A stretch of 32,000 bases of DNA from Pyrodictium occultum. Its GTDB lineage: Archaea; Thermoproteota; Thermoprotei_A; Sulfolobales; Pyrodictiaceae. The position numbers and the translations under genes were made by a program. The first letter of the stretch is position 1. Each line of letters begins with the position of its first letter. The DNA lies in NCBI RefSeq assembly GCF_001462395.1, contig NZ_LNTB01000002.1, positions 88,480 through 120,479 on the forward strand. Direction: 5' to 3'. The notes beneath the pieces were generated by a model. That model was not told the origin of the DNA. It saw only the letters and a list, made by a program, of their open reading frames with translations, and searched no databases. Below, in pieces: positions 1,644 to 22,870 of the stretch.

Positions 1644-1661
1644 AAAGGTGTAAGCAAGGAC

Positions 1662-4677: not shown

Positions 4678-4701
4678 AGGCATAGTAAGGTTTAAGATGA
4701 G

Positions 4702-5057: not shown

Positions 5058-5090
5058 GCATATACCTCGCTAAAAAGGGGAAAGCTAGCC

Positions 5091-5732
5091 TTGCCGAGGA
5101 GGCATATAATTGTGTTTGTTGGCCATGTTGGGGCTGGCAAAACTACACAGGCAAAATATTTAGAAGCATATTTAAAGAAAAGAGGTCAAAGATCAAAGTT
5201 TACTTATTTGAAAACATATTTTGTTTTTACAAATAACTTACTGCGAATATTTAGAAGAATGAATATTAGTAGAATAGGTCTCTATTTTATTCATCGGTTG
5301 CTGGTTGTACTGGACCTAGTAATTAATGTCTTTATTCTTCCTCTTTTAGCCTTATTTAGAGTTAGAATACCTTCTAAGTTTTACAAATACATTCTTATTG
5401 AGGAGTATTTGCCTGGAATTCTTGTGGATTATGTTCATGCGAAATTAATACTTAGATTAAATAAGAAATTCTTAATGAGGGCTATGCATGTTTTACTCAG
5501 ACTTCTCTACATCGACTCAACAACGATCATATTAGTGTGCAATGCTCAATCCCTGCCGTACCGCTGGAAGGCTAGAAATACTCCTCCAGAAGCACCCTCT
5601 TACCTCAAGGTGCAAGAGAAAGTATTTACCCTATGGAGTAAACACGTGGAAAACACTTTTTACGTATCTACTGAAGGAAGAAGTGTCAAGGAAACGAATC
5701 GAGAAATAAGAAAGCTGTTAAATATTCCTTAG
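5091..5732 (+). CDS. P-loop NTPase with a thymidylate-kinase-like N-terminus and an internal hydrophobic segment
   Basis: TTG start. Walker A is in IIVFVGHVGAGKTTQAKYLEAYLKKRG, which resembles the dTMP-kinase P-loop IxFEGxDGxGKTTQ. It is followed by the long hydrophobic stretch IGLYFIHRLLVVLDLVINVFILPLLALF. This is the most AT-rich gene in the window. Confidence 0.55.
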   Translation: MPRRHIIVFVGHVGAGKTTQAKYLEAYLKKRGQRSKFTYLKTYFVFTNNLLRIFRRMNISRIGLYFIHRLLVVLDLVINVFILPLLALFRVRIPSKFYKYILIEEYLPGILVDYVHAKLILRLNKKFLMRAMHVLLRLLYIDSTTIILVCNAQSLPYRWKARNTPPEAPSYLKVQEKVFTLWSKHVENTFYVSTEGRSVKETNREIRKLLNIP

Positions 5733-5757
5733 TTTAAAAATTGAGGTACTTAGGGAA

Positions 5758-6963: not shown

Positions 6964-8456
6964 ATGATCTCGGTGATCGTAGTTTACAATGATGTAAGGA
7001 TACTAAACGAGTGGTTATTAGAGAGTTTGAAGAATCAAAGTGCAGATTATGAGCTTATAGCACTAGATAACAGGAAAGGCGATTTTCCTTCAGCTGCTAA
7101 TGCCTACAACTATGGAGGCTTAAGGGCACGTGGCGACTATCTAATGTTTGTTCATCAAGACGTAAGATTATTGGGGAATACTTGGATTGAGGAGGCGGAG
7201 AGAATTCTACGGAACTTGCCTAAGCTAGGTGCTGCAGGTGTGGCTGGAAAAAGATGTGATATTCGTGGAGTTATAACTAATGCTATTCATGGTGTTCCAC
7301 CGCGACCGGCTGGTCAGATAAGAATATCAAAACCTGTGAAGGTTCAAACGCTAGATCCCCTGCTTATAATTGTGCCGAGAAAAGTTTTCCAGAGATTAAA
7401 GTATGATGAACATACATGCAACGGATGGCATCTTTATTCCATTCCGAGGATTACTGCCTCACCTTACAAAGGGAGGGGTTCAACTGTTATGTGCTACCAC
7501 TTCCCGTTTATCATCGGTCAACAGGTGTAAAGCCGAAGAAAAGAAAACTCATTGACTACGGCCCTTATCCTGATGAATACTATGCGATACTTAAAAAAGT
7601 GTTAAGGAAGCATAGGCTCCATTACCGTAAGATATGCACGACTTGTGGGGACTACTATACATTTATACCTCTTTTTATCCAATTGACTCTGCCGAGAGTA
7701 ATGAAGACTATCTTCTTGAGACTGTTTGGATCAAGCTTACGGTTATTGATTAGGAGCTGGCTGCTCAGGAATTTCGTTACAGCCTACTTTACGGCCAAGT
7801 ATAGGAGGCTGTTGAGGGAGGGTGTAAGCTTAGATGACCTAATAGACTTTGCCTTTGAATTTGTTGGCCTACCACTAGTAAAGTCTCACCAATTGTCGGA
7901 TATCGACCTTATCAACGCGTTAACCATAAGGCCTGCCCAAGTAAAGGAGGAAATCCGAGAATTCCTGAGCATACTGCAGAAAATAAGACCTAAAATCATT
8001 CTGGAGATAGGCACTGAGCGAGGGGGGACACTATTCCTGCTCAGCCAGGTAGCGGATGAAGATGCCACACTCATATCCATAGACTTACCATGGGATAACC
8101 GAGCATCCAAAGGCCATAGCTTCGGCTTCAGCTATCCACCATGGAGAGAGAAACTTTACAGGTCATTTGCTAGGGGCAATCAGAAAATATATCTCCTAAG
8201 AGGGGATTCACACTCGCAAGCGACCCTAATGGAGGTCAAAAGAATCCTCAGAGGGAGAAAACTGGACGTCTTATTCATAGATGGGGATCATACTTATGAG
8301 GGTGTTAAGAAGGATTTTGAAATGTATTCTCCACTAGTTAAAAAAGGAGGTATAATAGCTTTCCACGACATTGTCCCACACCTGCCTGAAACCGGTTGTG
8401 AGGTAAACAAATTCTGGAACGAGATTAAGAATAACTATAAATATCTCTTGAGATAG
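6964..8456 (+). pseudogene. GT2 glycosyltransferase fused to a class I SAM methyltransferase, broken by a 1-nt frameshift near 7432-7446
   Basis: Frame 1 reads MISVIVVYND...LIALDN...GDYLMFVHQDV (DxD-like)...DEHTCNGWHLY. The GT2 sequence then continues in the -1 frame as (F)HSEDYCLTLQREGFNCYVLPLPVYHRS. The switch lies in the T-rich tract ctttattcc. The downstream part has the MTase motifs ILEIGTERGGTLFLL and LFIDGDHTYEGVKKDFEMYSPLVKKGGIIAFHDI. ATG 6964 directly follows the TAA (6961-6963) of the preceding gene. Confidence 0.7.
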
Positions 8457-8495
8457 TTTGAGGATTGGAACCAGAAGTGGGCGGAGATAGGTGTC

Positions 8496-9182
8496 TTGTG
8501 TCATGTATCTGTACTAGAGTTCTTTATTGAATACGCGAGAGCAGAGGAGTTTAAGGGTAAAAAGGTATTAGAGGTTGGAAGTAGATATGTTAATGGAAGT
8601 GTGCGTCCGTTGATTGAGAAATATTTCCAACCTAAAGAATACATTGGAGTGGATATAGAGCCCGGTAAGTTTGTAGACCTGGTGTTGCCTGCTGAAAGGC
8701 TCCTAGAATACTTTGGCCCGGAATCTTTTGACGTGGTGATTAGTACGGAGTTGCTTGAGCACGTCGTTGATTGGAGGCTTGTAGTAAATAACATGAAGGG
8801 TGTGCTGAAACGTGGGGGATACATTTATATCACGACTAGATCTAGAAGTTTCCCTTATCATGCCTATCCTTACGATTTCTGGAGATATGAAATTGAGGAC
8901 ATGAAAAGGATCTTCGCTGATTTCAACATTATAAAATTAGAAAAGGATCATCAGGCTCCTGGGGTCTTTCTTAAGGCCAAGAAGCCAGAGAACTATGTAC
9001 CAGCTGACTTGTCGAACATAGCGCTTTACTCTATAATATTAGGGAGGAGAACAAGAGACATTCCAGATATTGGCGATGCTCCACTTATTAGGAGGCTTAT
9101 CCTTAGACTATTAAGTTCTAAGGCCAAGTGGCTACTGCCAGGAGGCTTATTACGTCTCATAGAAAAGAAAATCGTGGTTTAA
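8496..9182 (+). CDS. Class I SAM-dependent methyltransferase (Methyltransf_11-like)
   Basis: TTG start. Motif I is KVLEVGSRYVNGS, followed by YIGVDIEPG, FDVVISTELLEHVVDW and LKRGGYIYITTRS. It lies in the same frame as the upstream MTase, separated only by TAG 8454-8456. Confidence 0.8.
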   Translation: MCHVSVLEFFIEYARAEEFKGKKVLEVGSRYVNGSVRPLIEKYFQPKEYIGVDIEPGKFVDLVLPAERLLEYFGPESFDVVISTELLEHVVDWRLVVNNMKGVLKRGGYIYITTRSRSFPYHAYPYDFWRYEIEDMKRIFADFNIIKLEKDHQAPGVFLKAKKPENYVPADLSNIALYSIILGRRTRDIPDIGDAPLIRRLILRLLSSKAKWLLPGGLLRLIEKKIVV

Positions 9183-9344
9183 GTACTTAGTTCTTTATCA
9201 AAGAATCGTTGTTATATTAGGCTTATCCACAATATAAAATTTAATTTATTCAAGCTTCACAATTTATTTTATCTACCAGCAAGCTATCAAAACGCTAAAA
9301 TAGGAGAGTAGAATATTATCTAAGAACGTAAGTTAAAGATTAGT
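9183..9344 (+). promoter_or_regulatory. AT-rich intergenic region, probable promoter for the downstream plus-strand gene string
   Basis: 162 nt of very AT-rich non-coding DNA with several TATA-like runs (aatataaaatttaatttatt, gaatattatc), immediately upstream of the sulfotransferase start. Confidence 0.35.
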
Positions 9345-10009
9345 TTGGGTGCGAAGGAATTGAAGACAATAATTGTTCTGGGGATGGGTAGGTCTGGAAC
9401 CTCGATGGTAGCTGGGATTCTGCACATACTCGGGGTTAACATGGGCGAGAGGCTCCTCGGGGCCCACTGGTCCAACCCTCTAGGCCACTTCGAGGACCTT
9501 GACTTCGTCGAGTTGAACGAGGAGATCCTGAGGGCGGCCGGTGGGAGCTGGGACAACCCCCCGGCCCGGGAGGCGATCCTGGCGGTCGCCCCACGCTTCT
9601 ACGATAGGATAAGGCCGCTCGCGGAGGAGGAGAGGAGGAGGCACGAGGTGTGGGGCTGGAAGGATCCCAGGACCTCCCTCACCGTGGAGCTGTACCTCCC
9701 CCACCTCGAGAACCCCTACTTCATAGTGTGCCACCGCGACTGGGAGGCTATAGCGCGCTCCCTCAAGAGGAGGGATGGGATGAGCATAGAGAGGGGGTCT
9801 GGCTGGCCAGGGTGTGCTATGAGAGGGTTGAGGAGTTCTTCAGGGAGCACCCGGGCCTCAGAAGACTGGACGTTCGCTACGAGGACTTCATAGCCGGCCC
9901 GGAGGCTCACGTCAGGAGGATAGCCTCGTCCATAGGCCTGGAGCCCGGTGAGGAGAGGATCAGGAGGGCCACTGCCTTCGTGCTCTCCCCGGGGAGAGGG
10001 AGAGGCTAG
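9345..10009 (+). pseudogene. PAPS-dependent sulfotransferase family protein, frameshifted in a G5 tract (9793-9797)
   Basis: The 5'-PSB-like loop is IIVLGMGRSGTS and the 3'-PB-like region is WKDPRTSLTVE. ORF 9345..9893 reads ...RRDGMSIERG. The homologous continuation VWLARVCYERVEEFFREHPGLRRLDVRYEDFIAGPEAHVRRIASSIGL is in the frame of ORF 9650..10009. Adding one G to the G5 run restores a single ~221-aa ORF. An alternative start is TTG 9360 (MKTIIVLG). Confidence 0.75.
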
Positions 10010-10133
10010 TCAGGAGGATGAGGAGGGAGGAGATGGCCCGAAGGATCGTCAGGGGCTTGACGAACCCGAGGAAGGCGCTCAGGTACATTATGGGGAGGCT
10101 CCTGGGGAGAAGGTAGCCGGCTCACGGCCCCCG

Positions 10134-10139
10134 TTTATA
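10134..10139 (+). promoter_or_regulatory. Possible TATA box upstream of rmlA
   Basis: tttata in an otherwise GC-rich spacer, about 40 nt upstream of TTG 10177. Confidence 0.3.
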
Positions 10140-10176
10140 CCCTGCCCGCCGCCCTGCCTCCCCCGGGGGCTCAGCG

Positions 10177-11253
10177 TTGGGCGGCGGCGTTAGGGGCCTG
10201 GTTCTTGCGGGCGGCGAGGGCACGCGGCTTAGGCCGCTGACCCTCGCCATGCCTAAGCATTTGGTGCCCCTGCTGGGTAGGGCTATGATTGAGTACCCCA
10301 TCGGGCACCTGGTGGAGGCTGGGGTTAGGGATGTTGGTGTTGTGGTCGGCTACCTGGGCCACTTGATCACGGGCTACCTGGGTGATGGGTCTAGGTATGG
10401 GGCCAGGTTCACGTACATAAGGCAGGGGGAGAGGCTTGGGATAGCGCACGCTATACACCTGGCCGTCGAGGAGGGCTTCGTGGATGGGCCCTTCGTTGTC
10501 TACCTTGGTGACAACATACTCGCCGGGGGGGTACGGGGGTTCCTGGAGAGGTTCCTGGAGGAGGAGCCGGACGTGCTCATACTCCTCTCCAGGGTCAGGG
10601 ATCCCGGGAGGTTCGGCGTCGCGGTCGTCAGGGACGGCAGGGTCGTGCGGCTGGTGGAGAAGCCGAGGGAGCCCCCCTCAAACCTCGCCCTGATAGGGGT
10701 CTACTTCTTCAGGGACCCCGACCTGGTGGAGAGGGCCTTCACGGCCCTCAAGCCTTCGTGGAGGGGTGAGTACGAGGTCACGGACCTGATACAGTGGTTC
10801 ATAGACAACGGGTACAGGGTCGACTACGACGTAGTAAACGGCTGGTGGAAGGACGTCGGGACCCCCGAGGGGCTCCTCGAGGCGATATACCTCCTCCTGG
10901 ACGAGTCCAAGCCCAGGATTGACGGGGAGGTCGCGGGGGAGGTCGTGGGGAGGGTTATAGTGGAGGAGGGCGCCGTAGTCGAGGGGAGGGTCTACGGGCC
11001 GGCCTACATAGGCCGGGGGGCCCGCATAGGCGGGGAGGCTGCGGTCGAGCACTACGTGTCCATAGAGAGCGGGTCCAGGGTGCTCTCGGGCTCCATATCG
11101 AGGTCGCTCATAATGAGCGACAGCGTCATAGACGTCAAAAGGCTTAGGCTCGTTGACAGCGTTGTGGGCCAGGGCTCCATCGTGAGGGCCTCCAGGGAGA
11201 TACACGGGGAGATCAGGCTGGCGATATCGAATTACAGCCGGGTCGAGATATAG
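10177..11253 (+). CDS. rmlA: Glucose-1-phosphate thymidylyltransferase-type sugar nucleotidyltransferase (long archaeal form with a C-terminal left-handed beta-helix)
   Basis: It has the GGEGTRLRPLT motif, then PKHLVPL and LGIAHAI. The C-terminus has hexapeptide-repeat character (VIVEEGAVVEGRVYGPAYIGRGARIGGEAAV...). It is clustered with rmlD and rmlC. Confidence 0.8.
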   Translation: MGGGVRGLVLAGGEGTRLRPLTLAMPKHLVPLLGRAMIEYPIGHLVEAGVRDVGVVVGYLGHLITGYLGDGSRYGARFTYIRQGERLGIAHAIHLAVEEGFVDGPFVVYLGDNILAGGVRGFLERFLEEEPDVLILLSRVRDPGRFGVAVVRDGRVVRLVEKPREPPSNLALIGVYFFRDPDLVERAFTALKPSWRGEYEVTDLIQWFIDNGYRVDYDVVNGWWKDVGTPEGLLEAIYLLLDESKPRIDGEVAGEVVGRVIVEEGAVVEGRVYGPAYIGRGARIGGEAAVEHYVSIESGSRVLSGSISRSLIMSDSVIDVKRLRLVDSVVGQGSIVRASREIHGEIRLAISNYSRVEI

Positions 11254-11268
11254 CGCCGATACTGGAGT

Positions 11269-12306
11269 ATGCGCGGTGACGTCGGCTGGAGGGGTGGCTT
11301 GGTGAGGGTCCTAATCACGGGTTGCGCGGGCTACATAGGCACAACGCTCACCCCATACCTCCTCAGGAGGGGCTACGAGGTCAGATGCGTCGACAAGCTA
11401 ATCTTTGGGAGGGATGTCGTAGAGCACGTGCTAGGTGAGAGGGGGTTCGAGCTTGTAGAGGCCGACGTGAGGAGCGTAGACCCCCAGGTTCTCAGCGGGG
11501 TCGACTGCGTGGTGGACATGGCCGCCATACCTAACGACCCCGCGGGGGACCTCAACCCCGAGCTCACGCTCTCCATAAACTACAGGGGCAGGGCTAGGAT
11601 GGCATCCATGGCGAGGGAGAGGGGGGTCCCCTGCTATGTCCTATTCTCCAGCTGCAGCGTCTACGGGAGGCAGGAGGGGCCCGTCGACGAGGCCGCGGAG
11701 CCCAGGCCGCTGACAGTCTACGCCAGGGCCAACCTCCTAGCGGAGAGGGCCGTTCTCCCCCTCGCCAGCGAAGGGTTCACCCCCGTGGCCCTCAGGCTAG
11801 CTACAGTCTACGGGCCATCGAGGAGGATGAGGTTCGACCTCGTAGTCAACGCTATGACCCTCTCAGCCTACCGGGAGGGGAGGATATACGTCGAGGGCGA
11901 CGGGATGCAGGAGAGACCCCTAGTACACGTCCTAGACGTGGCTAGGGCCGTGGAGAGGGTGCTGGAGGCCGTGGAGAGGGACCCAGACCCCCTCAAGGGC
12001 CAGGTAATCAACATCGGCTCGGACGAGCAGAACTACAGGATAATCGAGATAGCTAGGATAGTGCGCGGGATAGTCGGGGGCGAGATAGTCTTCCGGGGCG
12101 AGGTTGACAGGAGGAGTTACAGGGTCAAGTTCGGGAGGGCTAGGAGGCTACTCGGCTTCCAGCCACTCTACACAGTGGAGGATGGAGTCAAGCAGGTATA
12201 CCACGAGCTCCTCACGGGGAAGCTGAAGCCCGAGCCCCGCTGGATAACGGTTCAGTGGTATAGGGAGCTACTCTCCAGGAACCCGGAGGTGCTGCTAAAG
12301 TGGTAG
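11269..12306 (+). CDS. Extended-SDR NAD-dependent epimerase/dehydratase with Y-x3-N in place of the catalytic Y-x3-K
   Basis: It has VLITGCAGYIGTTL (GxxGxxG) and SSCSVYG, but the active-site segment reads YARANLLAE (AAC Asn where Lys is expected). The likely true start is TTG/GTG at 11299/11302 (MRVLITG). It occupies the position where rmlB is often found, but lacks the RmlB hallmarks I know. Confidence 0.7.
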   Translation: MRGDVGWRGGLVRVLITGCAGYIGTTLTPYLLRRGYEVRCVDKLIFGRDVVEHVLGERGFELVEADVRSVDPQVLSGVDCVVDMAAIPNDPAGDLNPELTLSINYRGRARMASMARERGVPCYVLFSSCSVYGRQEGPVDEAAEPRPLTVYARANLLAERAVLPLASEGFTPVALRLATVYGPSRRMRFDLVVNAMTLSAYREGRIYVEGDGMQERPLVHVLDVARAVERVLEAVERDPDPLKGQVINIGSDEQNYRIIEIARIVRGIVGGEIVFRGEVDRRSYRVKFGRARRLLGFQPLYTVEDGVKQVYHELLTGKLKPEPRWITVQWYRELLSRNPEVLLKW

Positions 12307-13193
12307 CCCTGGTCACGGGGGTCAGCTCCTCCCCGGGCTACAAGGCCGCCCTCTCCCTCGCCCGCAGGGGGGTCGAGGTGGTCGGAGTCTATAACCAGCA
12401 TCCCGTCAGAGTTAAGGGTGTGGAGACCATTAGGAGGGACCTCACCCGGGACGCCCGCGGGCTCGTGAGGGAGTACAAGCCCGACGCCGTGGTGCACACC
12501 GCCGCTATGGGAAACGTCGACCTCTGCGAGGAGGATAGAAGCGCCTGCTACAGGGTGAACGTTGAGGCGACTAGGGAGCTCCTCAGGGAGGCCTACAGGC
12601 TCGGAGCCAGGATAGTCTACCTCTCGACGGACTACGTCTTCGACGGGGCGAGGGGGCTCTACAGGGAGGAAGACACGCCCTCCCCCGTCAACTTCTACGG
12701 GCTCACCAAGCTCCTAGGAGAGGAGGCGGCGCTAGCCCTCGGGGGCGTAGTGGCCAGGACCTCAGCGGTCTACGGCGTGGGCCCGGGGAGGCCCAACTTC
12801 GGCAAGGTTGTGGTCGAGAAGCTCATGCGAGGAGAGCGGGTGAGAGCCTTCACAGACCAGTGGCTCTCCCCCACGCTCAACACCCTCCTAGGCGAGGCCC
12901 TCGCAATGCTGGCGGTCGAAGCCGACTACGAGGGGATACTACACGTGGCCGGCCCCCGGATGAGCAGGTACGACTTCGCCGTCGCAGTAGCCAGAGCCTT
13001 CGGCCTAGACGAGGGGCTCATAGAGCCCGCCTCGATGGATAGCGTGGACTTCAAGGCTCCAAGGCCCAGGGATAGCAGCCTTGACTCCTCCAAGGCCTCA
13101 AGAATGCTGGGGCTAAGGCTCAACGACCTAGGCCACGCGCTCAGCCTATTCAAGAGAGAGCTTCGCGGCGAGACGGGCCAGCCCCCAACTTAA
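12300..13193 (+). CDS. rmlD: dTDP-4-dehydrorhamnose reductase
   Basis: STDYVFDG, YGLTKLLGE (YxxxK) and an N-terminal Rossmann fold (VALVTGVSSSPG). GTG start at 12300 overlaps the upstream TAG (12304-12306). Confidence 0.85.
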   Translation: MVALVTGVSSSPGYKAALSLARRGVEVVGVYNQHPVRVKGVETIRRDLTRDARGLVREYKPDAVVHTAAMGNVDLCEEDRSACYRVNVEATRELLREAYRLGARIVYLSTDYVFDGARGLYREEDTPSPVNFYGLTKLLGEEAALALGGVVARTSAVYGVGPGRPNFGKVVVEKLMRGERVRAFTDQWLSPTLNTLLGEALAMLAVEADYEGILHVAGPRMSRYDFAVAVARAFGLDEGLIEPASMDSVDFKAPRPRDSSLDSSKASRMLGLRLNDLGHALSLFKRELRGETGQPPT

Positions 13194-13220
13194 ATCCTCC
13201 GGGAACCCCGAGCCGTTCTG

Positions 13221-13802
13221 GTGGTGTATGCCTTGCCGTTCAAGTCCTTCAAGCGGCTCGGGATCCCCGACGTGGTACTGGTCGAGCCCGTGGTCTTCCC
13301 CGATGAGAGGGGCTTCTTCGCGGAGCTCTACAAGAGGACCCCATTCCTCTCCGAGGGGATCCCCTACGACTTCGTCCAGGTGAACCTGAGCAAGTCGAGG
13401 AGGGGCGTCGTCAGGGGGCTGCACTACCAGCTCAGGCCGATGGAGCAGGGTAAGCTGGTCACGGTCCTCCGGGGCAGGATCCTGGACGTTGCAGTGGATA
13501 TCAGGAGGGGGAGCCCGTGGTATGGGAGGTACGTGGCTGTCGAGCTGGCCGCCAACGAGCCCAGGCTGCTCTGGGTGCCCCCAGGCTTCGCCCACGGGTT
13601 CCAGGCGCTCGAGGACGACACCCTGGTACTATACCTGGTGACCAAGGAGTACAGCCCCGAGCACGAGCGCTGCATCAAGTGGGACGATCCGGACATAGGC
13701 GTGGACTGGCCCATAAAGGAGGGCGTCCTGCTCAGCGAGAAGGACCAGAGGTGCCCGCCGCTGCGCGGGGCGGAGACGAACTTCGAGTACCCCGGGGGCT
13801 AG
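13221..13802 (+). CDS. rmlC: dTDP-4-dehydrorhamnose 3,5-epimerase
   Basis: FPDERGFFAELY, RGLHYQ, GKLVTVLRGRILDVAVDIRRGSPWYG, WVPPGFAHGF and KWDDPDIGVDWP. Confidence 0.9.
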   Translation: MVYALPFKSFKRLGIPDVVLVEPVVFPDERGFFAELYKRTPFLSEGIPYDFVQVNLSKSRRGVVRGLHYQLRPMEQGKLVTVLRGRILDVAVDIRRGSPWYGRYVAVELAANEPRLLWVPPGFAHGFQALEDDTLVLYLVTKEYSPEHERCIKWDDPDIGVDWPIKEGVLLSEKDQRCPPLRGAETNFEYPGG

Positions 13803-13933
13803 TGCCCCCGGACAGCGGTCTTGCCGCGGCTGTTGCTGCCGGCGTTGCTGTGCGGCTTCCCTTGCTGCTACCGCTGCTGCCCTGCGGGGGCTGTCCGGCG
13901 GGGGTGGTGGCGTTCTCGTGGCCCCGGGGCGTC

Positions 13934-13954
13934 TTTAATGATATTTAATTAATG
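13934..13954 (+). promoter_or_regulatory. AT-rich island (TATA/BRE candidate) for the RHH-sat-NPP transcription unit
   Basis: tttaatgatatttaattaatg is a conspicuous 21-nt A+T block in ~67 % GC DNA, 35-55 nt upstream of the RHH start at 13989. Confidence 0.5.
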
Positions 13955-13988
13955 CCTCGTCCTCCCCGGGGCTGCGGGGTTTGGGGTC

Positions 13989-14234
13989 TTGGCCTCCGGC
14001 GGCTCTGGCGGCAGGAGGGGGAGGTACACTACTGTCTCTATACCGGTCTCCCTCTACGAGCGGATCCAGAGGCTTATCGAGGGGACGGGGTTCACCAGTG
14101 TGTCCCAGTTTGTGACGTATGTGCTGCGGGAGGTTGTGGCGGAGATGGAGGAGGAGAGGCTGAGGAGCGGGGAGGTTGGTGAGGAGGAGAAGAAGGCTAT
14201 TCTCGAGAGGCTTCGGAGGCTTGGCTACCTGTAG
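13989..14234 (+). CDS. Ribbon-helix-helix (CopG/Arc/MetJ-type) DNA-binding protein
   Basis: The beta-strand plus two helices read TTVSIPVSLYERIQRLIEGTGFTSVSQFVTYVLREVV. The tail is acidic and ends ...ILERLRRLGYL. TTG start; the exact start is uncertain because there is no in-frame ATG. Confidence 0.7.
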   Translation: MASGGSGGRRGRYTTVSIPVSLYERIQRLIEGTGFTSVSQFVTYVLREVVAEMEEERLRSGEVGEEEKKAILERLRRLGYL

Positions 14235-14242
14235 CCCTCCTA

Positions 14243-15421
14243 TTGGCGGGGTGGTGTGGTGTGGTCTCGCGTCCTCATGGGGGTAGGCTTGTGGACAGGG
14301 TTGCCCGGGGTGGGTCGAGGGAGAGGCTGCTGCGGGAGGCTCTGGAGATGCCCAGGCTGGAGGTTGGCGGGGGCTTGGCTGCGGATGCCGCTAATATCGC
14401 GCATGGGGTTTATAGCCCGTTGGATGGCTTCATGGTGCAGGAGGATTACCTCTCGGTGCTGCATGATATGAGGCTTAGCAGTGATGTGCCGTGGACTATC
14501 CCGATTGTGCTTGATGCTTCTCCGGGCGAGCTGGCGGGGGTTAGGGAGGGTGATGAGGTTGCCCTCTTCTACCGTGGTGAGCCGCTGGCGGTGCTCCGGG
14601 TTGAGGAGATCTATGGCTGGGACCGGAGGGAGCATGCCCTCAACGTGTTTAAGACCACTGACCCGGGGCACCCGGGCGTTGCCAGGCTTATGAGGAGGAA
14701 GGAGCTGTTCGTGGGCGGGCCTATCCTCCTCCTCCGGGACCCGCCGGAGCCTTTTGAGAGGGTGAGGCTCTGGCCCCGGGAGACGCGTGTGCTCTTCGAG
14801 GCCAAGGGCTGGAGGACTATAGCGGCTTTCCAGACGCGCAACGTGCCCCATCTAGGCCACGAGCATGTGCAGAAGGCCGCGCTCACCTTCGCCGACGGGC
14901 TGTTTGTGAGCCCTCTGGTGGGCTGGAAGAAGCCCGGCGACTACAGGGACGAGGTGATAGTTGAGGCCTACAGGGTGTTGCTGGAGAACTACTTCCCCAG
15001 GGAGAGTGTTGTATTCAGCGTGCTCAGGATGGAGATGAGGTACGCGGGGCCGCGGGAGGCGGTGCACCACGCGATAGTGAGGAAGAACTTCGGCGCAACC
15101 CACTTCATAGTGGGGAGGGACCACGCGGGGGTCGGGAGCTACTACGGCCCCTACGAGGCATGGGAGCTGTTCAGGGAGTTCCCGGACCTAGGGATAACCC
15201 CCCTCTTCGTCAGGGAGGCGTTCTACTGCAGAAAGTGCGGCCAGGTGGTCAACGAGAAGATATGCCCCCACGGCGAGGAGTACAGGGTGAGGATCAGCGG
15301 CACCAGGCTGCGGGAGATGCTCCGGAGGGGCGAGAGGCCGCCGGAGTACATGATGAGGCCGGAGGTGGCGGAGGTGGTCCTAAGGCACCCGGACCCCTTC
15401 GTGCCCGGGGACGAGAGGTGA
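14243..15421 (+). CDS. sat: Sulfate adenylyltransferase (ATP sulfurylase)
   Basis: PHGGRLVDR, FQTRNVPHLGHEH (the QTRNP-H-x-x-H motif) and HFIVGRDHAGVG..YYGPYEA. The likely true start is GTG 14261 (MVSRPHGG). Confidence 0.9.
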   Translation: MAGWCGVVSRPHGGRLVDRVARGGSRERLLREALEMPRLEVGGGLAADAANIAHGVYSPLDGFMVQEDYLSVLHDMRLSSDVPWTIPIVLDASPGELAGVREGDEVALFYRGEPLAVLRVEEIYGWDRREHALNVFKTTDPGHPGVARLMRRKELFVGGPILLLRDPPEPFERVRLWPRETRVLFEAKGWRTIAAFQTRNVPHLGHEHVQKAALTFADGLFVSPLVGWKKPGDYRDEVIVEAYRVLLENYFPRESVVFSVLRMEMRYAGPREAVHHAIVRKNFGATHFIVGRDHAGVGSYYGPYEAWELFREFPDLGITPLFVREAFYCRKCGQVVNEKICPHGEEYRVRISGTRLREMLRRGERPPEYMMRPEVAEVVLRHPDPFVPGDER

Positions 15422-16797
15422 GGGATGCGGGAGGGGTGCCGCGCCGCCTATTCCTCCTGGGGCTCGACTCGATGCCCCCGAGGGTCCTCTACGAGGGGAT
15501 GGACGGGGGCGGGTTCAGCTACCTCCGCCAGCTGCTGGGGGATGCGAGGCGCTACCGGCTGAGGAGCTGCCACCCGCCGATAACGGTGCCGGCCTGGATG
15601 GCCATGTTCACGGGGAGGACGCCGGGCGAGCTGGGGGTCTACGGGTTCAGGCACCGGAGGCCGGGCGAGTACGGCTACTACATAGTCGACGGCACGAGGA
15701 TACGACACCCGGCCCTATGGGACCTGGCGGGCCGCAGGGGGCTCCGGGCGGGCGTGTACGGCGTGCCCCCCACCTACCCGCCCCGCCCGGTCCACGGGTT
15801 CCTGGTCACCGACTTCACCACCCCGGGGCCGGAGAAGCCCTACACCTTCCCGCCCTGGCTCCGCCGCGAGCTGGAGCAGGCCGCCGGGGGGCCTCCAGTG
15901 TTCGACATAGTGTACCGGAGCGGCGAGAAGGACAGGGTGGCCAGGGACCTCTACGCGATGCTGGAGAGCCACCAGCGGCAGGTGGAGTACCTGGCGCTGA
16001 GGAAGCGCTGGGACCTATTCATATATGTGGAGATAGCCGTCGACAGGGCGCACCACGCCTTCTGGAGGTACTTCGACCCCGAGCACCCCCGGCACGAGGA
16101 GCACCCGGTGTACAGCAGGGTGATCCCCGAGCTCTACAGGAGGATAGACAGGTGGTTCGAGAGGCTCCACCGGAGGCTCCCGCGGGACACGGTGGTGGTT
16201 GTGGCGAGCGACCACGGCATCAAGGCTATGAGGGGCGCGTTCGCGGTCAACCAGTGGCTGGCCGAGCAGGGCTACCTCCGGCTGCGCGCCAGCCCCGGGG
16301 AGCTGAAGCCCGGCACGGAGCTCTCCGAGGACCTGGTGGACTGGGAGCACACGGTCGCCTGGGCCTGGGGAGGCTACTACAGCCGCGTGTTCATCAACCT
16401 ACGGGGCAGGGAGAAGAGGGGCGCGGTGGAGCCCAAGTACTACGAGGAGACGGTCGAGCAGCTCCGGAGGGACCTCGAGAGGATAAGGGGGCCGGGCGGC
16501 GAGCACTGGAGGAACACTGCCCTGCGCCCCGAGGAGGTCTACCCGGAGGTCAACGGGGACCCGCCGGACCTCATGCTCTACCTGGACGACCTCAACTGGA
16601 GGCCGGCGGGCACCCTGGGCTGGCCCAGCCCCTACCTGGAGGAGAACGACCGCGGCCCCGACGACGCCGTCCACGACTGGATCGGGGTGTTCGCTGTCTA
16701 CGACCCCGAGGGCACTGTGAGCCCCGGCGAGGCGGGGGTGATTGATATACACGGGGTGCGCGGCCTGCTGGAAGAGATAATATTCTCCAGGCGGTGA
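15418..16797 (+). CDS. Alkaline-phosphatase-superfamily enzyme, type I phosphodiesterase/nucleotide pyrophosphatase (NPP) family
   Basis: LFLLGLDS (metal-binding Asp), PPITVPAWMAMFTGRTPGELGVYGF (Thr nucleophile context) and VVVASDHG (DHG metal site). GTG 15418 overlaps the sat TGA (GTGA); an alternative start is GTG 15436. The ORF-track start at 15160 lies inside sat and is rejected. Confidence 0.75.
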   Translation: MRDAGGVPRRLFLLGLDSMPPRVLYEGMDGGGFSYLRQLLGDARRYRLRSCHPPITVPAWMAMFTGRTPGELGVYGFRHRRPGEYGYYIVDGTRIRHPALWDLAGRRGLRAGVYGVPPTYPPRPVHGFLVTDFTTPGPEKPYTFPPWLRRELEQAAGGPPVFDIVYRSGEKDRVARDLYAMLESHQRQVEYLALRKRWDLFIYVEIAVDRAHHAFWRYFDPEHPRHEEHPVYSRVIPELYRRIDRWFERLHRRLPRDTVVVVASDHGIKAMRGAFAVNQWLAEQGYLRLRASPGELKPGTELSEDLVDWEHTVAWAWGGYYSRVFINLRGREKRGAVEPKYYEETVEQLRRDLERIRGPGGEHWRNTALRPEEVYPEVNGDPPDLMLYLDDLNWRPAGTLGWPSPYLEENDRGPDDAVHDWIGVFAVYDPEGTVSPGEAGVIDIHGVRGLLEEIIFSRR

Positions 16798-16819
16798 GGC
16801 CCCCGGAGGGGTGGAGAGC

Positions 16820-17028
16820 ATGGGGGACAAGGTCTCCATAGAGATAAGCAGGGAGCTGTACGAGAAGGCCCGGAGGTTCATAGAGGAGCAGGGGGCTTCA
16901 GCAGCGTGGAGGAGCTGGTGGAGTTCCTGCTCCGCGAGGCCCTCGAGACCGGCGGGGAGGAGGAGGGGATGAGCAGGGAGGACGAGGAGCGGGTCAGGGA
17001 GAGGCTCCGCTCCCTGGGCTACCTCTAG
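16820..17028 (+). pseudogene. Second ribbon-helix-helix paralogue, frameshifted in a G5 tract (16891-16895); absent from the ORF track
   Basis: GGAGG/GGTGGAG SD precedes ATG 16820. The N-terminal frame gives MGDKVSIEISRELYEKARRFIEEQG. After the G5 run the -1 frame gives GFSSVEELVEFLLREALETGGEEEGMSREDEERVRERLRSLGYL, ending at TAG 17026-17028. This is colinear with the 13989 RHH protein (GFTSVSQFVTYVLREVV...ERLRRLGYL). One extra G restores a ~70-aa ORF. Confidence 0.7.
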
Positions 17029-17647
17029 CCCCCTCTCCCAGGGCCTCCAGTATCCTCGCGGCCAGCCTCTCCGCGTTCTCCTCCACAGTATTCCTCACCG
17101 TGTCGAGCACCAGGTCGGGGTTCTCGGGGGGCTCGTAGGGGTCGCTCACGCCGGTGAAGTGGCTTATCTCCCCGCGGAGGGCGCGGCGGTAGAGCCCCTT
17201 AGGGTCCCTCCTGATGCACTCCTCGAGGGGAGCGTGGACGTAGACCTCGAGGAAGGGGGCCTCCTCCTCGACTATCCTGCGGACCTCCCTCCTCACGTCG
17301 CGGTAGGGGGAGACGAAGCTGCAGACCACTATCACCCCATTCCGGGCCAGGAGCCGGGCTATCCAGGCGACGCGGAGGAGGTGGCGCCGCCTCTCCTCCC
17401 GCGTGTAGCCCGCGTCCGGGTTGATGGTCTTCCTCACCCAGTCCCCGTCCAGGACCTCGACACGGTAGCCCAGGGAGCGTAGCCTCTTAGCGGTAGCCAG
17501 GGCTATCGTGGTCTTGCCGCTCGCGGGGAGCCCGGTGAGCCACGCGACAACCCCGCGCTCCAGGCAGCGCATCCCCAGCCACCCTCCCAGCCCCGCGGGC
17601 CCCACGAGCTGGATAAGCCTCGCGCCCACAGCAAGGAGCCAGGCCAC
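16994..17647 (-). CDS. cysC: Adenylylsulfate (APS) kinase
   Basis: LTGLPASGKTT (P-loop), LDGDWVR, CSFVSPY, RDPKGLYRRA and FTGVSDPYEPP. The likely true start is ATG 17572 (MRCLERGVVAWLTG). Its 3' end overlaps the convergent RHH paralogue by ~35 nt. Confidence 0.9.
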   Translation of the reverse strand: MAWLLAVGARLIQLVGPAGLGGWLGMRCLERGVVAWLTGLPASGKTTIALATAKRLRSLGYRVEVLDGDWVRKTINPDAGYTREERRRHLLRVAWIARLLARNGVIVVCSFVSPYRDVRREVRRIVEEEAPFLEVYVHAPLEECIRRDPKGLYRRALRGEISHFTGVSDPYEPPENPDLVLDTVRNTVEENAERLAARILEALGEGARGSPGSGASP

Positions 17648-17803
17648 AATAAGCCGGAGAGGTGATGGGGGGCAGCAGGGAGAGCTGGCATCCAGCCTCC
17701 GGCTCCGCCCCTCGGCGCAGGCCTTGGCGCCGCTCGCCCACCGGGCGCTCGGGTGGGGGCTTCTCCGCTCTTGCTGGCCGAGATGGGCTCCAAGCCATTA
17801 TAG

Positions 17804-18820
17804 ATGGCGTGGGTGATGTATAGCCCTGCATCCCCGGGGGGCTGTGGGTGTGGCCTGGGCTTGGCCGTGCTAGTCACGGGCGGCGCTGGGTTCGTCGGGA
17901 GGCATGTAGTGGGGCTGCTGCTCGAGAGGGGCTACGAGGCTGTTGTGGTGGACAACCTCTACTCCCCGGGCTCGGCTGGGGCCGCCATGCGCCTCCGCTG
18001 GCTGGGTGCGCGGGTTGTCTGGGGTGACGTCTCCCGCTGGGAGACCCTGCTCCACGCCGTGGGGGAGGCTGGGCTGGGGCGGGGCGACGTCGAGGCCGTG
18101 GTCCACCTGGCCGCGGTGGTGGGCGTCGAGGAGGCATGGGGGAGGCCGCGGCTGGCGCTGGAGGTGAACGTAGAGGGTACGCTGAACGTGCTGGAGCTGG
18201 CCCGGCTCCTCGACGCGGAGAGGATTGTCTACGCCAGCAGCGCGGCGGTCTACGGGGAGCCCAGGTACCTCCCCATCGACGAGAACCATCCCCTGGAGCC
18301 GGTCAGCCTCTACGGCTGGTCGAAGCTCGCCGGGGAGACCCTGCTCTGGCAGTACCAGCGGGCCTACGGGCTCAGGCCGGCCGCGCTCCGCCTGTTCAAC
18401 GTCTACGGGCCCGGGATGAGGCCGGGCCCCTACGCGGGCGTGGTGTACAGGTTCATAGAGGCGCTTCTCCGCGGGGAGCCGCCGGTGGTCTACGGCGACG
18501 GCGAGCAGACCCGGGACCTCGTCTACGTGGGGGACGTGGCTGAGGCCATGCTCCGGGCGGTAGAGGCGGGCTACACGGGCCCAGCCAACATAGGCACCGG
18601 GAGGGAGACCAGCATAAACCAGCTCTACAGGATGCTCTGCAGCCTCCTGGGCGGGGGCTGCCCGGAGCCGCTCCACAAGCCCCCGAGGCCGGGGGATGTT
18701 AGGAGGAGCGTAGCCTCAATCAGGCTGGCGGAGGAGAAGCTCGGCTGGAAGCCCAGGACAGGCCTGGAGCAAGGCCTAAGGGAGACGATCAAGTACTATA
18801 GGGGGCGCGTAGAGCCGTAG
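17804..18820 (+). CDS. NAD-dependent sugar epimerase (GalE-like extended SDR)
   Basis: VLVTGGAGFVGRH, YASSAAVYGEP, YGWSKLAGE (YxxxK), FNVYGPG and GDGEQTRDLVYVGDVA. The likely start is further in, TTG 17858 or GTG 17864. Confidence 0.8.
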   Translation: MAWVMYSPASPGGCGCGLGLAVLVTGGAGFVGRHVVGLLLERGYEAVVVDNLYSPGSAGAAMRLRWLGARVVWGDVSRWETLLHAVGEAGLGRGDVEAVVHLAAVVGVEEAWGRPRLALEVNVEGTLNVLELARLLDAERIVYASSAAVYGEPRYLPIDENHPLEPVSLYGWSKLAGETLLWQYQRAYGLRPAALRLFNVYGPGMRPGPYAGVVYRFIEALLRGEPPVVYGDGEQTRDLVYVGDVAEAMLRAVEAGYTGPANIGTGRETSINQLYRMLCSLLGGGCPEPLHKPPRPGDVRRSVASIRLAEEKLGWKPRTGLEQGLRETIKYYRGRVEP

Positions 18821-18965
18821 ACAGGGCAGACGCCGGGTCGAACGAGAGTAGCCCAGCGCCGCCGGCCACCTCGAAGGACACGTGAACGTGGAGCACCCTG
18901 GCCGCCACGGTGCCTGCACCCCTGCCCGCGGGGGCCAGCCCTCACGGCTCCCCGCAGGGCCCCTC

Positions 18966-20454
18966 CTATGGCTTCAGGAGCTGTAGCCTCCGTAGCCTCC
19001 TGAATAGGCTTGTGTAGTTGGCCTTTCCGGCCGCGTTGAGCCCTGTGGCGAAGGCGTCTGCCAGAGGCCTGCCATCCGTGTCGTGGGGTAGTGGGAGCCC
19101 GAGGTACGCTAGTATGGTGGGTGTGATGTCGTAGATGGAGGCTCTCCTCTCCTCGCCGGCGGGCGGGGCGGATACCTCATCCCCCGCCAGGGCTACTAGC
19201 GCGTGCTGCTCGTGGACGCCCATATACCCCTTGTGGAGCGGCTCTGCATGTATGTTCGCGTCGAAGAACACGTCGGGCCCCGGTATGAGGAGTAGGCTGG
19301 GCGCCCTCTCCACGTAGGGCCCCCAGAAGACCTCGTCCCGCGAGGCTATGCCCCGTATCTGGCTGATGCCCTGCAGTGCCTGGCGCACGGCGCCGCAGTA
19401 GCCCCTCCTCACGTACACCCCCAGGTTGCCCGTCTCGAGCATGAAGGCCCTGCTTGTGGAGTAGTTCACCTCCACCTGTAGAGGGATCAGTGGCCTTATC
19501 CTCTTCAGGAGGCTTCTCGGTATAAGCCTCCTCGCCAGCCGGAGGAGGGGGCGTATTCTGGAGCCCCGGGCGCTGCTGGGGGAGCTGCCGCTGCCCGGCT
19601 CCGTGGCGCTGTGCTCTGCCCCCCCGGGCCACGTGGTACCGGTAGTCTATCAGGCCCCTGTCTGCGAGGATGCTGTTTACACCCACGAGCACGCGTGCGA
19701 CGCGGAAGCCGTGATCGCTCGCGAGTATAAGCAGGCTGCACTCGCCGCTAGCTTTACGGACAAACCTGTCTATCATCGATGCGATCCTGTAGACTCTATG
19801 CATTTGCCTGCCCTCGACTATGTCCGGGATCCTGTGCATGAGCCAGTCGAGCTCGCTGAACACTATGACGAAGAGGCTGTAGTCCTCCTTCTCGAGCAGG
19901 TCATAGTAGATGTTTAGCCTCTTCTCGAGAAACTCCTCAACCATCTTCACATAGGAGTCTGTGTCGGCGGCCCTGCTCCACTGGTGGGGAGGCTCGACCA
20001 GGTACTCGGAGTACCTGGCCTCATAGCCTCTAGGGTGGATGAACTGCCGGGGGGAGGACCAGTCGCTGACGAGTACAAGGTTCCGGGCCGCGAGGAGCTG
20101 GGATACGGGGTAGGTTAGGGGCACGTTTATGACGACGCTCCTAAGCCCCTTCATGGCGGCTATCTCGAACACGCGCGGGTACATGACGTCGCGGGACGAT
20201 GCCACGCGGATACTGAAGCCCTCTTCGCCCTGCTCGACCACGTAGAAGCCGAATATGCCGTGCTTCCCGGGGTTCACCCCGGTGAATATGCTCGTCCAGG
20301 CGGGGGGCGTGTAGGGAGGGATCGAGGGAGCGGGGGAGGCGAAGCCCTTGCCGGCTATGCTGGATAGCGCGTTGAGCGGGATACTCTCCAGCATGGTCTT
20401 AAGGTTGCCTGGCCCGACGCCGTCGAGGCCTATTAGGCATACACGTTTAGCCAA
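18966..20454 (-). pseudogene. Second NPP-family (alkaline-phosphatase superfamily) paralogue, frameshifted in a G7 tract (plus-strand C7 at 19619-19625)
   Basis: TTG start preceded by an AGGTGGTG SD. Motifs are CLIGLDG, IPPYTPPAWTSIFTGVNPGKHGIFGF and LILASDHG. The sensible sequence ends at ...DYRYHVARGG and resumes in the frame of ORF 18966..19475 as AEHSATEPGS...VEVNYSTSRAFMLETGNLGVYV...IYDITPTILAYLGLPLPHDTDGRPL. A G6 tract (one G fewer) would give one ~495-aa ORF. Confidence 0.75.
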
Positions 20455-20606: not shown

Positions 20607-21605
20607 ATGAAGCGGCTGGTGTTCGTCGCCTGGGCGCGGCTTAGCCGGAGGACGCGCGACCTCGCCCGGGCCCTTGGGGCCGGGCTGCTGTTCCTCCGGG
20701 ATAGGCCCCCCTACATCCGCGCCTGGAGGGAGACCGCCAGGGCGCTGGAGGAGGCCAGGCCGGACGCCGTGGTCGTGCAGCTGCCGCAGGGGCCGCTGCT
20801 CCTCCGCGTGGCCACGCTGGCCGGGCGCCTCGGCTTCCGGGTCGTGGCCGACGTGCACACCGGGTTCCTCGTCTACAGCTCGCCGGCGGGGCTCCTGCTC
20901 AACCGGCCCTTCCGCGGGCTCCTCCGCCGCGCCGACCTGGTGCTGGCCCACAACGAGCCCGAGGCGAGGCTGCTGGGGAGGGCCGGGCTGCCGGGGGAGA
21001 GGGTGCTGGTGGTCTACGACCCCCTGCCCCGGCCCCCGGCTAGGCTGGAGAGGCCAGCCCTAGACCTCGGCGACGGGGGGTACATCCTCGTCCCGGCCTC
21101 CTGGGCGCCCGACGAGCCCCTGGAGCTCGTGGCCAGGGGCTTCCTCGCATCAGGGGCCCCCGGGGGCTACAGGCTCGTGGTGACCGGGGATCCGGGGAGG
21201 AGGCCGGGGCTCCACCGGAGGCTGAGGAGGCTGGCCCGGGAGAGCCGGGGCTCCATAGTGCTCACCGGCTTCCTCCCCGAGCCCCAGTACGCCTGGCTCC
21301 TCAGCCACGCCGCCGCCGTGGTGGCGGCTACGACGAGGGAGTACACGATGCTCTCGGCGGCCTGGGAGGCGGTGGCCTACCGGAAGCCCCTCCTAGCATC
21401 CGCGACGGGGACGCTGAGGGAGGTGCTGGGGCCGGGCTACCCCTGCCTCTTCCCCCCGACCGTGGAGGGGGTGGCGGAGGCCATCGACAGGTGCCTCTCC
21501 GGGGGCCCCGGGGTCGCGGAGGCAGTCGAGGAGACCCTGGAGAGGCTGAGAAGGATGTCGACGGGGAGCCTGGAGAGGCTGGCCAGGATCCTCGAGAGGC
21601 TCTAG
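20607..21605 (+). CDS. GT-B fold glycosyltransferase (divergent, GT4/GT1-like)
   Basis: 332 aa with a two-domain Rossmann-like layout. The C-terminal half reads YILVPASWAPDEP...LVVTGDPG...IVLTGFLPEPQY...AAVVAATTREYTMLSAAWEAVAYRKPLL. The assignment rests on general pattern only. Confidence 0.5.
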   Translation: MKRLVFVAWARLSRRTRDLARALGAGLLFLRDRPPYIRAWRETARALEEARPDAVVVQLPQGPLLLRVATLAGRLGFRVVADVHTGFLVYSSPAGLLLNRPFRGLLRRADLVLAHNEPEARLLGRAGLPGERVLVVYDPLPRPPARLERPALDLGDGGYILVPASWAPDEPLELVARGFLASGAPGGYRLVVTGDPGRRPGLHRRLRRLARESRGSIVLTGFLPEPQYAWLLSHAAAVVAATTREYTMLSAAWEAVAYRKPLLASATGTLREVLGPGYPCLFPPTVEGVAEAIDRCLSGGPGVAEAVEETLERLRRMSTGSLERLARILERL

Positions 21606-22861: not shown

Positions 22862-22870
22862 AGGGGCCGG

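Follow-up and report, generated by a model that had tools for sequence, protein, structure and literature searches.

Why should a hyperthermophilic archaeon hold the genes for 3'-phosphoadenosine 5'-phosphosulfate (PAPS) synthesis in the midst of genes for glycan assembly, and what is the PAPS made for? The question is raised by a stretch of 32,000 nucleotides (nt) of Pyrodictium occultum (NCBI RefSeq assembly GCF_001462395.1, contig NZ_LNTB01000002.1, positions 88,480 to 120,479 of the forward strand), hereafter called the window, whose first letter is position 1 of all coordinates given below. It carries sat, encoding ATP sulfurylase, and cysC, encoding the kinase of adenosine 5'-phosphosulfate (APS), together with two genes of the nucleotide pyrophosphatase/phosphodiesterase (NPP) family, NPP1 and NPP2, two genes for ribbon-helix-helix (RHH) proteins, RHH1 and RHH2, and the gene of a PAPS-type sulfotransferase. 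An earlier note on this DNA had seen in these genes a candidate for a dedicated glycan-sulfation system of a kind not yet described. Profile hidden Markov model (HMM) searches recovered all the genes that it had listed, at or near the positions expected. With moderate confidence, we read the region as two things lying side by side, a conserved PAPS-synthesis module and a lineage-specific surface-glycan locus, in which the sulfotransferase most likely uses the PAPS of the module and NPP1 most likely assists Sat.

A PAPS-synthesis module around sat and NPP1

Sat makes APS and CysC converts it into PAPS. In the window, sat (14243..15421, plus strand) encodes a protein with PUA_2 and ATP-sulfurylase domains (ATP-sulfurylase, 3e-93; NF003166, 525 bits against a cut-off of 387), and cysC (16994..17647, minus strand, with a likely start at the ATG at 17572) encodes an APS kinase (APS_kinase, 1.7e-57; TIGR00455, 205 bits against a cut-off of 138.7). 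Both genes exceed their NCBIfam cut-offs, and the statement that Sat plus CysC make PAPS is upheld. Between them lies NPP1 (15418..16797, plus strand), an NPP/PhnA-like gene of the alkaline-phosphatase superfamily (Phosphodiest, 3.9e-44), the true start of which is the GTG at 15418. This start overlaps the TGA stop of sat by 4 nt (GTGA, 15418-15421), and NPP1 is accordingly predicted to be translationally coupled to sat. The module would thus consist of RHH1, sat, NPP1 and RHH2 on one strand, with cysC convergent to the sat operon, Sat providing APS and CysC providing PAPS.

The conservation of this arrangement was assessed on 80 further loci with NPP1 relatives, taken from a one-genome-per-species collection, which together with earlier non-duplicates gave 85 loci (designated below by L numbers). 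All open reading frames (ORFs) within 6 kb of NPP1 were compared by tblastn and unsupervised clustering, and neighbours within 5 kb were counted in the 40 species-level loci having at least 3 kb of flank on both sides. Of these 40 loci, 33 have a sat gene in that range, 33 a small RHH gene, 28 cysC and 17 a DHH gene. Clustering of the neighbours gives the same ranking (Sat 50/85, RHH 49/85, CysC 43/85, DHH 26/85, then TauE 11/85), and no further neighbour family exceeds 10 of the 85 loci. The lineages bearing the module include Pyrodictiaceae, Acidilobaceae, Desulfurococcales, Thermofilaceae, Korarchaeia, Methanomethylicia, Culexmicrobium, Geothermarchaeota and Jordarchaeia; a compact operon of overlapping sat, NPP1 and cysC genes is present in L062, L064, L068, L069 and L087.

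The DHH protein of the related loci is homologous to the characterised phosphatase of 3'-phosphoadenosine 5'-phosphate (PAP) from Methanothermococcus thermolithotrophicus (PDB 8A8K, E 9e-20), and on account of this homology its interpretation as a family II pyrophosphatase was rejected. NPP1 adjoins sat, cysC and the PAP phosphatase gene in most species-level loci of Thermoproteota, Korarchaeia, Methanomethylicia and Jordarchaeia. DHH is nevertheless a variable component of the module, as its count shows, and the window contains neither a DHH nor a TauE homologue, nor a second copy of sat or cysC. TauE is encoded near the module in Pyrodictium delaneyi and Hyperthermus butylicus. A gene for an ABC-transporter ATPase is also seen near the module in seven loci (L035, 4922-5857, and six others); it may belong to an importer of anions such as sulfate.

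NPP1 itself is 80% identical to Pyrde_1958 of P. delaneyi, and its mean column identity is 69% over 20 sequences from distant lineages. Residues D17, T56, D209, H213, D265, H266 and H419, corresponding to the metal ligands and the Thr nucleophile, are invariant in these 20 diverse sequences, as is an R78-H79-R80 cluster near the nucleophile. A fold search was required for placing the family, because searches of PDB sequences were negative with phmmer, which returned no match to NPP1, and weak with profiles, which returned PhnA and Xanthomonas NPP with E-values no better than 8.5e-4; in the profile search, T56 aligns with the PhnA nucleophile. The AlphaFold2 model of NPP1 (mean pLDDT 89.6) was then best matched by Foldseek, among PDB structures, to ENPP1, Xanthomonas NPP and PhnA (probability 1.00, E about 1e-15, TM-score 0.5-0.65). 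Since no transmembrane segment is predicted in it, NPP1 is probably cytoplasmic. Its high conservation across phyla would suit a universal small-molecule substrate rather than a lineage-specific glycan.

At which step of the pathway could NPP1 act? The sat and NPP1 genes overlap, their pairing is tighter than that of NPP1 with cysC or with DHH (33 versus 28 versus 17 of 40 loci), and Pyrolobus and H. butylicus possess sat and NPP1 with no cysC within the fetched flank. A role at the Sat step fits these data. This step is thermodynamically unfavourable, and NPP1 might aid it by hydrolysing a phosphoanhydride by-product at a two-metal, Thr56-containing site. We tentatively propose, with somewhat less confidence than the overall reading, that NPP1 could be a helper which pulls APS formation by hydrolysing inorganic pyrophosphate (PPi), the leading candidate, or a related phosphoanhydride. 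Degradation of PPi by this NPP has already been the subject of speculation (Jin et al., 2021; PMC8268124); no other paper on this NPP was found in our literature search, and a search for COG3379 gave nothing relevant. Pyrophosphatase was rate-limiting for an in vitro assay of ATP sulfurylase and APS kinase (Jespersen et al., 2023; PMC10322725).

The sat operon is preceded by RHH1 (13989..14234, plus strand; RHH_1, 8e-5), which encodes a CopG-like protein and is likely to be its regulator. The AT-rich promoter island previously seen upstream of this first RHH gene is real (TTTAATGATATTTAATTAATG, about 13935-13955), and its core TTTAATGATATTTAATTAATGCC (13935-13957, in a candidate element at 13930..13957, plus strand) is kept upstream of the orthologous P. 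delaneyi operon (L002, about 8478-8503), which makes it a candidate for both the TATA box and the RHH operator. The inverted repeat CCCCGGGG, which flanks the promoter, was considered as an RHH operator and rejected: it is absent from the P. delaneyi promoter, and the window holds 18 copies of this palindrome (among them those at 9987, 13790, 13922, 13964 and 17832) versus 4.15 expected from shuffles, with 0 of 100 shuffles reaching 18. One of the copies is the second frameshift site of the sulfotransferase gene. RHH2 (16820..17028, plus strand), a paralogue of RHH1 frameshifted at a G5 run near 16885, starts 23 nt past the stop of NPP1; its last 35 nt or so (16994-17028) are shared with the 3' end of cysC, on the opposite strand. 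The conserved AT-rich promoter would probably be the site at which the two CopG-like proteins control the operon.

A sulfotransferase within a surface-glycan locus

The sulfotransferase gene (Sulfotransfer_3; 9345..10116, plus strand) is split across three reading frames by two single-G deletions, and its true end is at 10116 instead of 10009 as first described. Pfam Sulfotransfer_3 matches both unrepaired fragments (9345-9893, E 1.8e-4, and 9650-10009, E 3e-6) at a borderline level, with 22.3 bits, under the curated cut-off of 27, and 28.1 bits, barely over it. The repaired product of 257 amino acids (aa) reaches 51.8 bits (E 1.7e-13) over profile positions 2-213 of 216, and can be aligned over its whole length, both mended junctions included, with relatives of about 250 aa. 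The 5'-phosphosulfate-binding loop is kept (GMGRSGTS, residues 13-20, of the GxxRSGTS type), and the 3'-phosphate-binding residues R131 and S139 are invariant in the family alignment. These features argue that the sulfotransferase call of the earlier note was correct and that the gene, about 4 kb upstream of the PAPS module and inside a glycan-assembly locus, encodes a bona fide PAPS-type enzyme.

In the deposited proteins of P. occultum, the N-terminal fragment is represented, with 99% identity, by CF15_08305, a truncated 'hypothetical protein' of 177 aa. Among intact sequences, the nearest relatives share 41-55% identity and belong to bacteria and Asgard archaea; no orthologue above 55% identity was found in any other organism, P. 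delaneyi included, which suggests a lineage-specific acquisition. Two relatives that were inspected (L089 and L090) sit in polysaccharide loci with GT2, GT4, Polysacc_synt flippase, Glycos_transf_4 and C5-epimerase genes. Our search of the literature on archaeal sulfotransferases in connection with N-glycans and PAPS found nothing relevant.

The sulfotransferase gene is followed on the same strand by genes of the rhamnose pathway: an rmlA-like sugar-1-phosphate nucleotidyltransferase gene (10177..11253; NTP_transferase, 7.8e-47), an extended short-chain dehydrogenase/reductase (SDR) gene in the place expected for rmlB (11269..12306; Epimerase, 3.4e-40), rmlD for dTDP-4-dehydrorhamnose reductase (12300..13193; RmlD_sub_bind, 1.6e-56) and rmlC for dTDP-4-dehydrorhamnose 3,5-epimerase (13221..13802; dTDP_sugar_isom, 5.1e-68). 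The SDR is atypical, as it has YARAN instead of the catalytic YxxxK and scores 56.6 bits with TIGR01181 against a cut-off of 365. RmlA, RmlC and RmlD are clear, and a canonical dTDP-glucose 4,6-dehydratase is not evident in the window. The same gene order is found in L041, where an operon of rmlA, rmlB-like, rmlD and rmlC genes lies 1.3 kb from NPP1 and where the SDR matches GDP_Man_Dehyd much more strongly (6.4e-74 versus 5.4e-21 here); rmlC and rmlD are also near NPP1 in L017.

On the other side of the sulfotransferase gene, base composition changes abruptly. GC content rises from 35-48%, between position 1 and about 9400, to 63-77% beyond, and delimits a low-GC island (1..9344, mean 41.6%, plus strand) which adjoins the sulfotransferase gene and whose edge lies just inside the sulfotransferase ORF, about the first 60 nt of which share its lower GC (0.48 versus 0.63). 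This suggests horizontal acquisition or recombination at the island edge. The island carries GT4 and GT2 glycosyltransferase genes and two methyltransferase genes, identified by family profile matches between 519 and 9182; one of the two methyltransferases resembles a rhamnosyl O-methyltransferase. Two further ORFs of the island are less telling: the first (3727-4677, 316 aa) has no Pfam match, and the second (5091-5732, 213 aa) has a P-loop, two hydrophobic segments and only weak AAA_22 and SRP54 matches.

Beyond cysC, a GalE-like NAD-dependent sugar epimerase or dehydratase gene (17804..18820, plus strand; family profile matches) is followed by NPP2 (18966..20454, minus strand), whose reading frame is interrupted once, in a G8 run near 19620. 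With 22-27% identity to NPP1, NPP2 is a distant paralogue; it has the motifs IPPYTPPAW, SDHG and HEQHA and is the orthologue of a 506-aa NPP of P. delaneyi, to which it is 54% and 47% identical on the two sides of the frameshift. The arrangement of epimerase, NPP2 and GT4 genes is found near the module in P. occultum and P. delaneyi alike. Seven other loci have an orthologue of the epimerase (39-52% identity) close to the module, and matches were obtained in 12 loci in all. The earlier idea of two NPPs as like partners of PAPS synthesis is not supported: NPP1 is a highly conserved companion of sat, and NPP2 is a distant paralogue travelling with the epimerase and the GT4 gene. NPP2-like paralogues, sometimes with Sulfatase-family genes, adjoin NPP1 in at least 8 other loci, and their lower conservation would suit variable substrates, perhaps glycans. 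In distant archaeal metagenome-assembled genomes (L005, 9396-15014; L006, 15769-17082; L066, 891-5184), sat, DHH and NPP1 are followed by one to three NPP2-like paralogues and Sulfatase-family (PF00884) genes, so that PAPS synthesis is surrounded there by a notable number of alkaline-phosphatase-superfamily enzymes.

The remainder of the window bears out the earlier observation of glycan genes on both flanks (glycosyltransferases, a flippase, nucleotide-sugar enzymes). NPP2 is followed by three glycosyltransferase genes on mixed strands (20607..23845), namely GT4 (plus), GT4 (minus) and Alg14-like/GT4-like (minus), then by sugar-nucleotide dehydrogenase and oxidoreductase genes (23874-26226), a gene of 76% GC (26196-27755) for a 519-aa membrane protein, predicted to cross the membrane at least 10 times and without a Pfam match, which may serve the locus as glycan flippase or polymerase, and a MatE protein gene (29761-31212). 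The surface-glycan locus would then comprise the PAPS-dependent sulfotransferase, the rhamnose-pathway genes, the epimerase, NPP2, the glycosyltransferases, the polytopic membrane protein and the low-GC glycosyltransferase/methyltransferase island. Judging from this context, the sulfotransferase would most likely use PAPS from the module for the O-sulfation of a glycan containing rhamnose, or of the lipid- or nucleotide-linked precursor of this glycan.

To our knowledge, archaeal glycan sulfation is known biochemically mainly from haloarchaea. If the neighbouring sulfotransferase does draw on this PAPS, a rhamnose-containing surface glycan would undergo PAPS-dependent sulfation in Pyrodictium, a hyperthermophilic crenarchaeon, and a concrete enzyme would be at hand for this modification in archaea.

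Can the interrupted genes be taken as intact? Four frameshifts lie within about 11 kb, near 9795 (in a G5 run) and 9990 (in a copy of CCCCGGGG) in the sulfotransferase gene, near 16885 (in a G5 run) in RHH2 and near 19620 (in a G8 run) in NPP2. Each of them is mended by adding one G, all being the loss of a single G from a G run. At the RHH2 site, a G6 run and an intact ORF of 68 aa are found in an independent, near-identical assembly (L088; Logan SRR5453782), and the repaired sulfotransferase and NPP2 align with their relatives through the junctions without gaps or extra stops. By our own estimate, 1.6 Mb of sequence is expected to encode about half of 3,360 genes. That number is the count of coding sequences (CDS) in the 1.6-Mb PL19 draft of P. 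occultum, which was obtained from Illumina MiSeq reads with SPAdes and a Geneious 'superassembly' (PMC4767911). Because it is about double the expectation, artefactual gene splitting seems widespread in this draft. The four frameshifts are probably assembly errors and the genes intact; this is observed directly for RHH2 and would extend by analogy to the sulfotransferase and NPP2. Given these systematic single-G deletions, the 'pseudogenes' of PL19 should not be trusted at face value. Other splits in the window perhaps have the same cause, namely those of a GT4 gene (519-1112 / 1146-1643) and of a GT2/methyltransferase gene (6964-7530 / 7416-8456).

Possible fates of PAPS and roles of NPP1

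Several facts weigh against a sulfotransferase fed by the module and an NPP1 assisting Sat. The sulfotransferase subfamily is present in 0 of the 85 NPP1 loci, as searched by tblastn and by a subfamily HMM on six-frame ORFs, and the sulfotransferase plus PAPS module was therefore rejected as a conserved system. The profile matches of the sulfotransferase to solved sulfotransferases (TPST2, SULT1B1, CurM ST, StaL) are marginal, with E-values of 0.003 or weaker, and it is by analogy with RHH2 that its frameshifts and that of NPP2 would be artefacts. As regards NPP1, its motif reads P-P-I-T-V-P-A-W, the invariant Ala59-Trp60 replacing the Asn-His of the canonical NPP 'TFPNH'. NPP-type enzymes normally yield PPi rather than hydrolyse it, and a housekeeping pyrophosphatase is normal in cells, so that the need for a dedicated one is not obvious. 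Finally, the orthologous sat (Pdsh_03730) and cysC (Pdsh_03715) of the sister species P. delaneyi, strain Hulk, have been assigned to sulfate reduction, and this organism has PAPS-reductase-family genes and a sulfite-reductase complex elsewhere in its genome and grows on sulfate (Demey et al., 2017; PMC5556600). The module is conserved on its own, and the terms 'dedicated' and 'wired to glycan sulfation' of the earlier note are not supported. In the neighbourhoods compared, sat, RHH and cysC co-occur with NPP1 (in 28 to 33 of the 40 loci), this sulfotransferase subfamily is absent, and glycan genes recur only weakly near the module (in the 85 loci, epimerase 10; AglH-like, flippase-like and Alg13/14-like 5 each). 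Glycan O-sulfation in P. occultum is still plausible, as a reasonable reading of a local juxtaposition, not of a conserved 'system'.

Three other explanations have to be weighed against this reading. According to one of them, the sulfotransferase, RHH2 and NPP2 are true pseudogenes and the glycan-sulfation branch is decaying in PL19, only sat, NPP1 and cysC being functional. The concentration of four frameshifts in so short a segment would agree with this, as would the truncated sulfotransferase of the deposited annotation and the lack, in the protein collection, of an intact copy at 90% identity or more. We nevertheless hold it to be very unlikely, since the four lesions are all of one type, the broken frames show no further stops or decay and align end to end with relatives, RHH2 is unbroken in the independent assembly and gene splitting by artefact appears genome-wide. 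More serious, though still unlikely, is the possibility that sat, NPP1 and cysC mainly serve sulfate assimilation or reduction, PAPS passing to a PAPS-reductase-family enzyme and then to a sulfite reductase encoded elsewhere, and that the proximity of the glycan locus and the sulfotransferase is incidental. The assignment of the orthologous P. delaneyi genes and its growth on sulfate speak for it, as does the conservation of the module independently of any sulfotransferase, and Jin et al. (2021; PMC8268124) name the cluster assimilatory sulfate reduction. Against it, no reductase is a recurrent neighbour within 6 kb on either side of the module in the 85 loci, and neither a PAPS/APS reductase nor a sulfite reductase is encoded within 10 kb on either side in P. 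delaneyi and H. butylicus. Within the window, the earlier statement that such reductases are missing from the 32 kb is confirmed, as none of the approximately 38 ORFs scanned matches a PAPS/APS-reductase or sulfite-reductase family. PAPS_reduct-family annotations moreover often turn out to cover other enzymes. Pyrococcus yayanosii has no identifiable PAPS or sulfite reductase according to Jin et al. (PMC8268124), and P. occultum, an obligate sulfur reducer living in sulfide (PMC4767911), would have little need for sulfate assimilation. Since the P. delaneyi genome holds reductase genes at other sites and the organism grows on sulfate, part of the PAPS may go to reduction: glycan O-sulfation is a probable use of it, though perhaps not the sole one.

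The third explanation concerns NPP1, which could be the missing consumer of APS or PAPS instead of a helper of Sat: either a transferase of sulfuryl or adenylyl groups with a Thr nucleophile or a hydrolase that keeps APS, PAPS or PAP levels in check, with the NPP2-type paralogues and sulfatase-family neighbours as acceptor-specific variants. In many archaea with the module, neither a sulfotransferase nor a reductase can be recognised, yet a PAP phosphatase is present in many, and its presence argues that PAPS is consumed and PAP released in them. The alkaline-phosphatase superfamily includes sulfatases and group transferases, the R78-H79-R80 cluster stands invariant beside the nucleophile, and additional NPP2-like and Sulfatase-family genes adjoin the module in L005, L006, L045, L048, L049, L052, L053 and L066. 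In M. thermolithotrophicus, which has ATP sulfurylase, APS kinase, PAP phosphatase and PAPS reductase, the paper mentions no phosphodiesterase (PMC10322725). This explanation is weakened by the link of Sat with NPP1, tighter than that of NPP1 with CysC and kept in Pyrolobus and H. butylicus without cysC in the fetched flank, by the very high conservation of NPP1, which suits a universal small substrate and not varied acceptors, and by the fact that no member of the NPP clade is known as a sulfotransferase. We thus regard it as improbable and, in its boldest form, where NPP1 is not a pyrophosphatase but a sulfuryl-transfer enzyme consuming APS or PAPS and founding a new sulfotransferase class, as slightly more improbable still. 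Whether or not NPP1 assists Sat as we propose, the function of this protein, extremely conserved in archaeal PAPS operons, is the main question raised by our results. Its answer would explain why anaerobic archaea dwelling in sulfide keep the PAPS pathway, many of them with no recognisable use for PAPS.

Comparison with known systems

By its fold, its two-metal ligands and its Thr nucleophile, NPP1 resembles the NPP/PhnA clade, represented by ENPP1, Xanthomonas NPP and phosphonoacetate hydrolase. It differs from these enzymes by a low identity (12-16%), by the loss of the Asn of 'TFPNH' in favour of Ala-Trp, by a large extra region and by its probable cytoplasmic location.

PAPS-dependent sulfation loci for glycans and glycolipids are known in bacteria, with NodPQ and NodH in Sinorhizobium and CysNC and Stf0 in Mycobacterium. 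The P. occultum region is reminiscent of them in that a dedicated or linked PAPS supply lies beside a carbohydrate sulfotransferase in a glycoconjugate locus. It is distinguished from them by its occurrence in a hyperthermophilic archaeon, by the NPP and RHH partners, and by a sulfotransferase of another subfamily, without a characterised close relative.

Within archaea, the pathway of M. thermolithotrophicus comprises ATP sulfurylase, APS kinase, a DHH-type PAP phosphatase, PAPS reductase and Fsr (Jespersen et al., 2023; PMC10322725). PAPS is made there too by ATP sulfurylase and APS kinase, the PAP phosphatase (MtPAPP, 8A8K) is homologous to the DHH protein of our related loci, and rapid removal of PPi is needed for ATP sulfurylase. 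In contrast, no PAPS or sulfite reductase is encoded in the P. occultum window or recurs near the module, which has an NPP-family enzyme instead.

The closest counterpart is a cluster reported by Jin et al. (2021; IJMS 22:7159, PMC8268124), and its existence overturns the claim that the gene combination was not a described system. That cluster, conserved in Euryarchaeota and Crenarchaeota, consists of copG, ATP sulfurylase, DHH pApase, type I phosphodiesterase/NPP and APS kinase genes, with TauE nearby; examples are Pyrococcus yayanosii (PYCH_17520-17560), Aeropyrum pernix, Ignicoccus, Ferroglobus and Aciduliprofundum, and in some archaea a sulfotransferase adjacent to the cluster was noted (PMC8268124). 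P. occultum likewise has the CopG/RHH, sat, NPP-family and cysC genes in one tight cluster, and the Aeropyrum-type locus (L071) and many sat–DHH–NPP loci are among the NPP1 relatives analysed here. Its module differs in that the DHH PAP phosphatase is lacking and sat and NPP1 overlap directly, in that TauE is absent from the window, in the presence of a second RHH paralogue and a convergent cysC, and in being embedded in a rhamnose, glycosyltransferase and sulfotransferase locus. The PAPS module with NPP and RHH partners is thus already described, and to it the window adds a member that does without the PAP phosphatase and stands beside genes for a sulfotransferase, for rhamnose and for glycosyl transfer.

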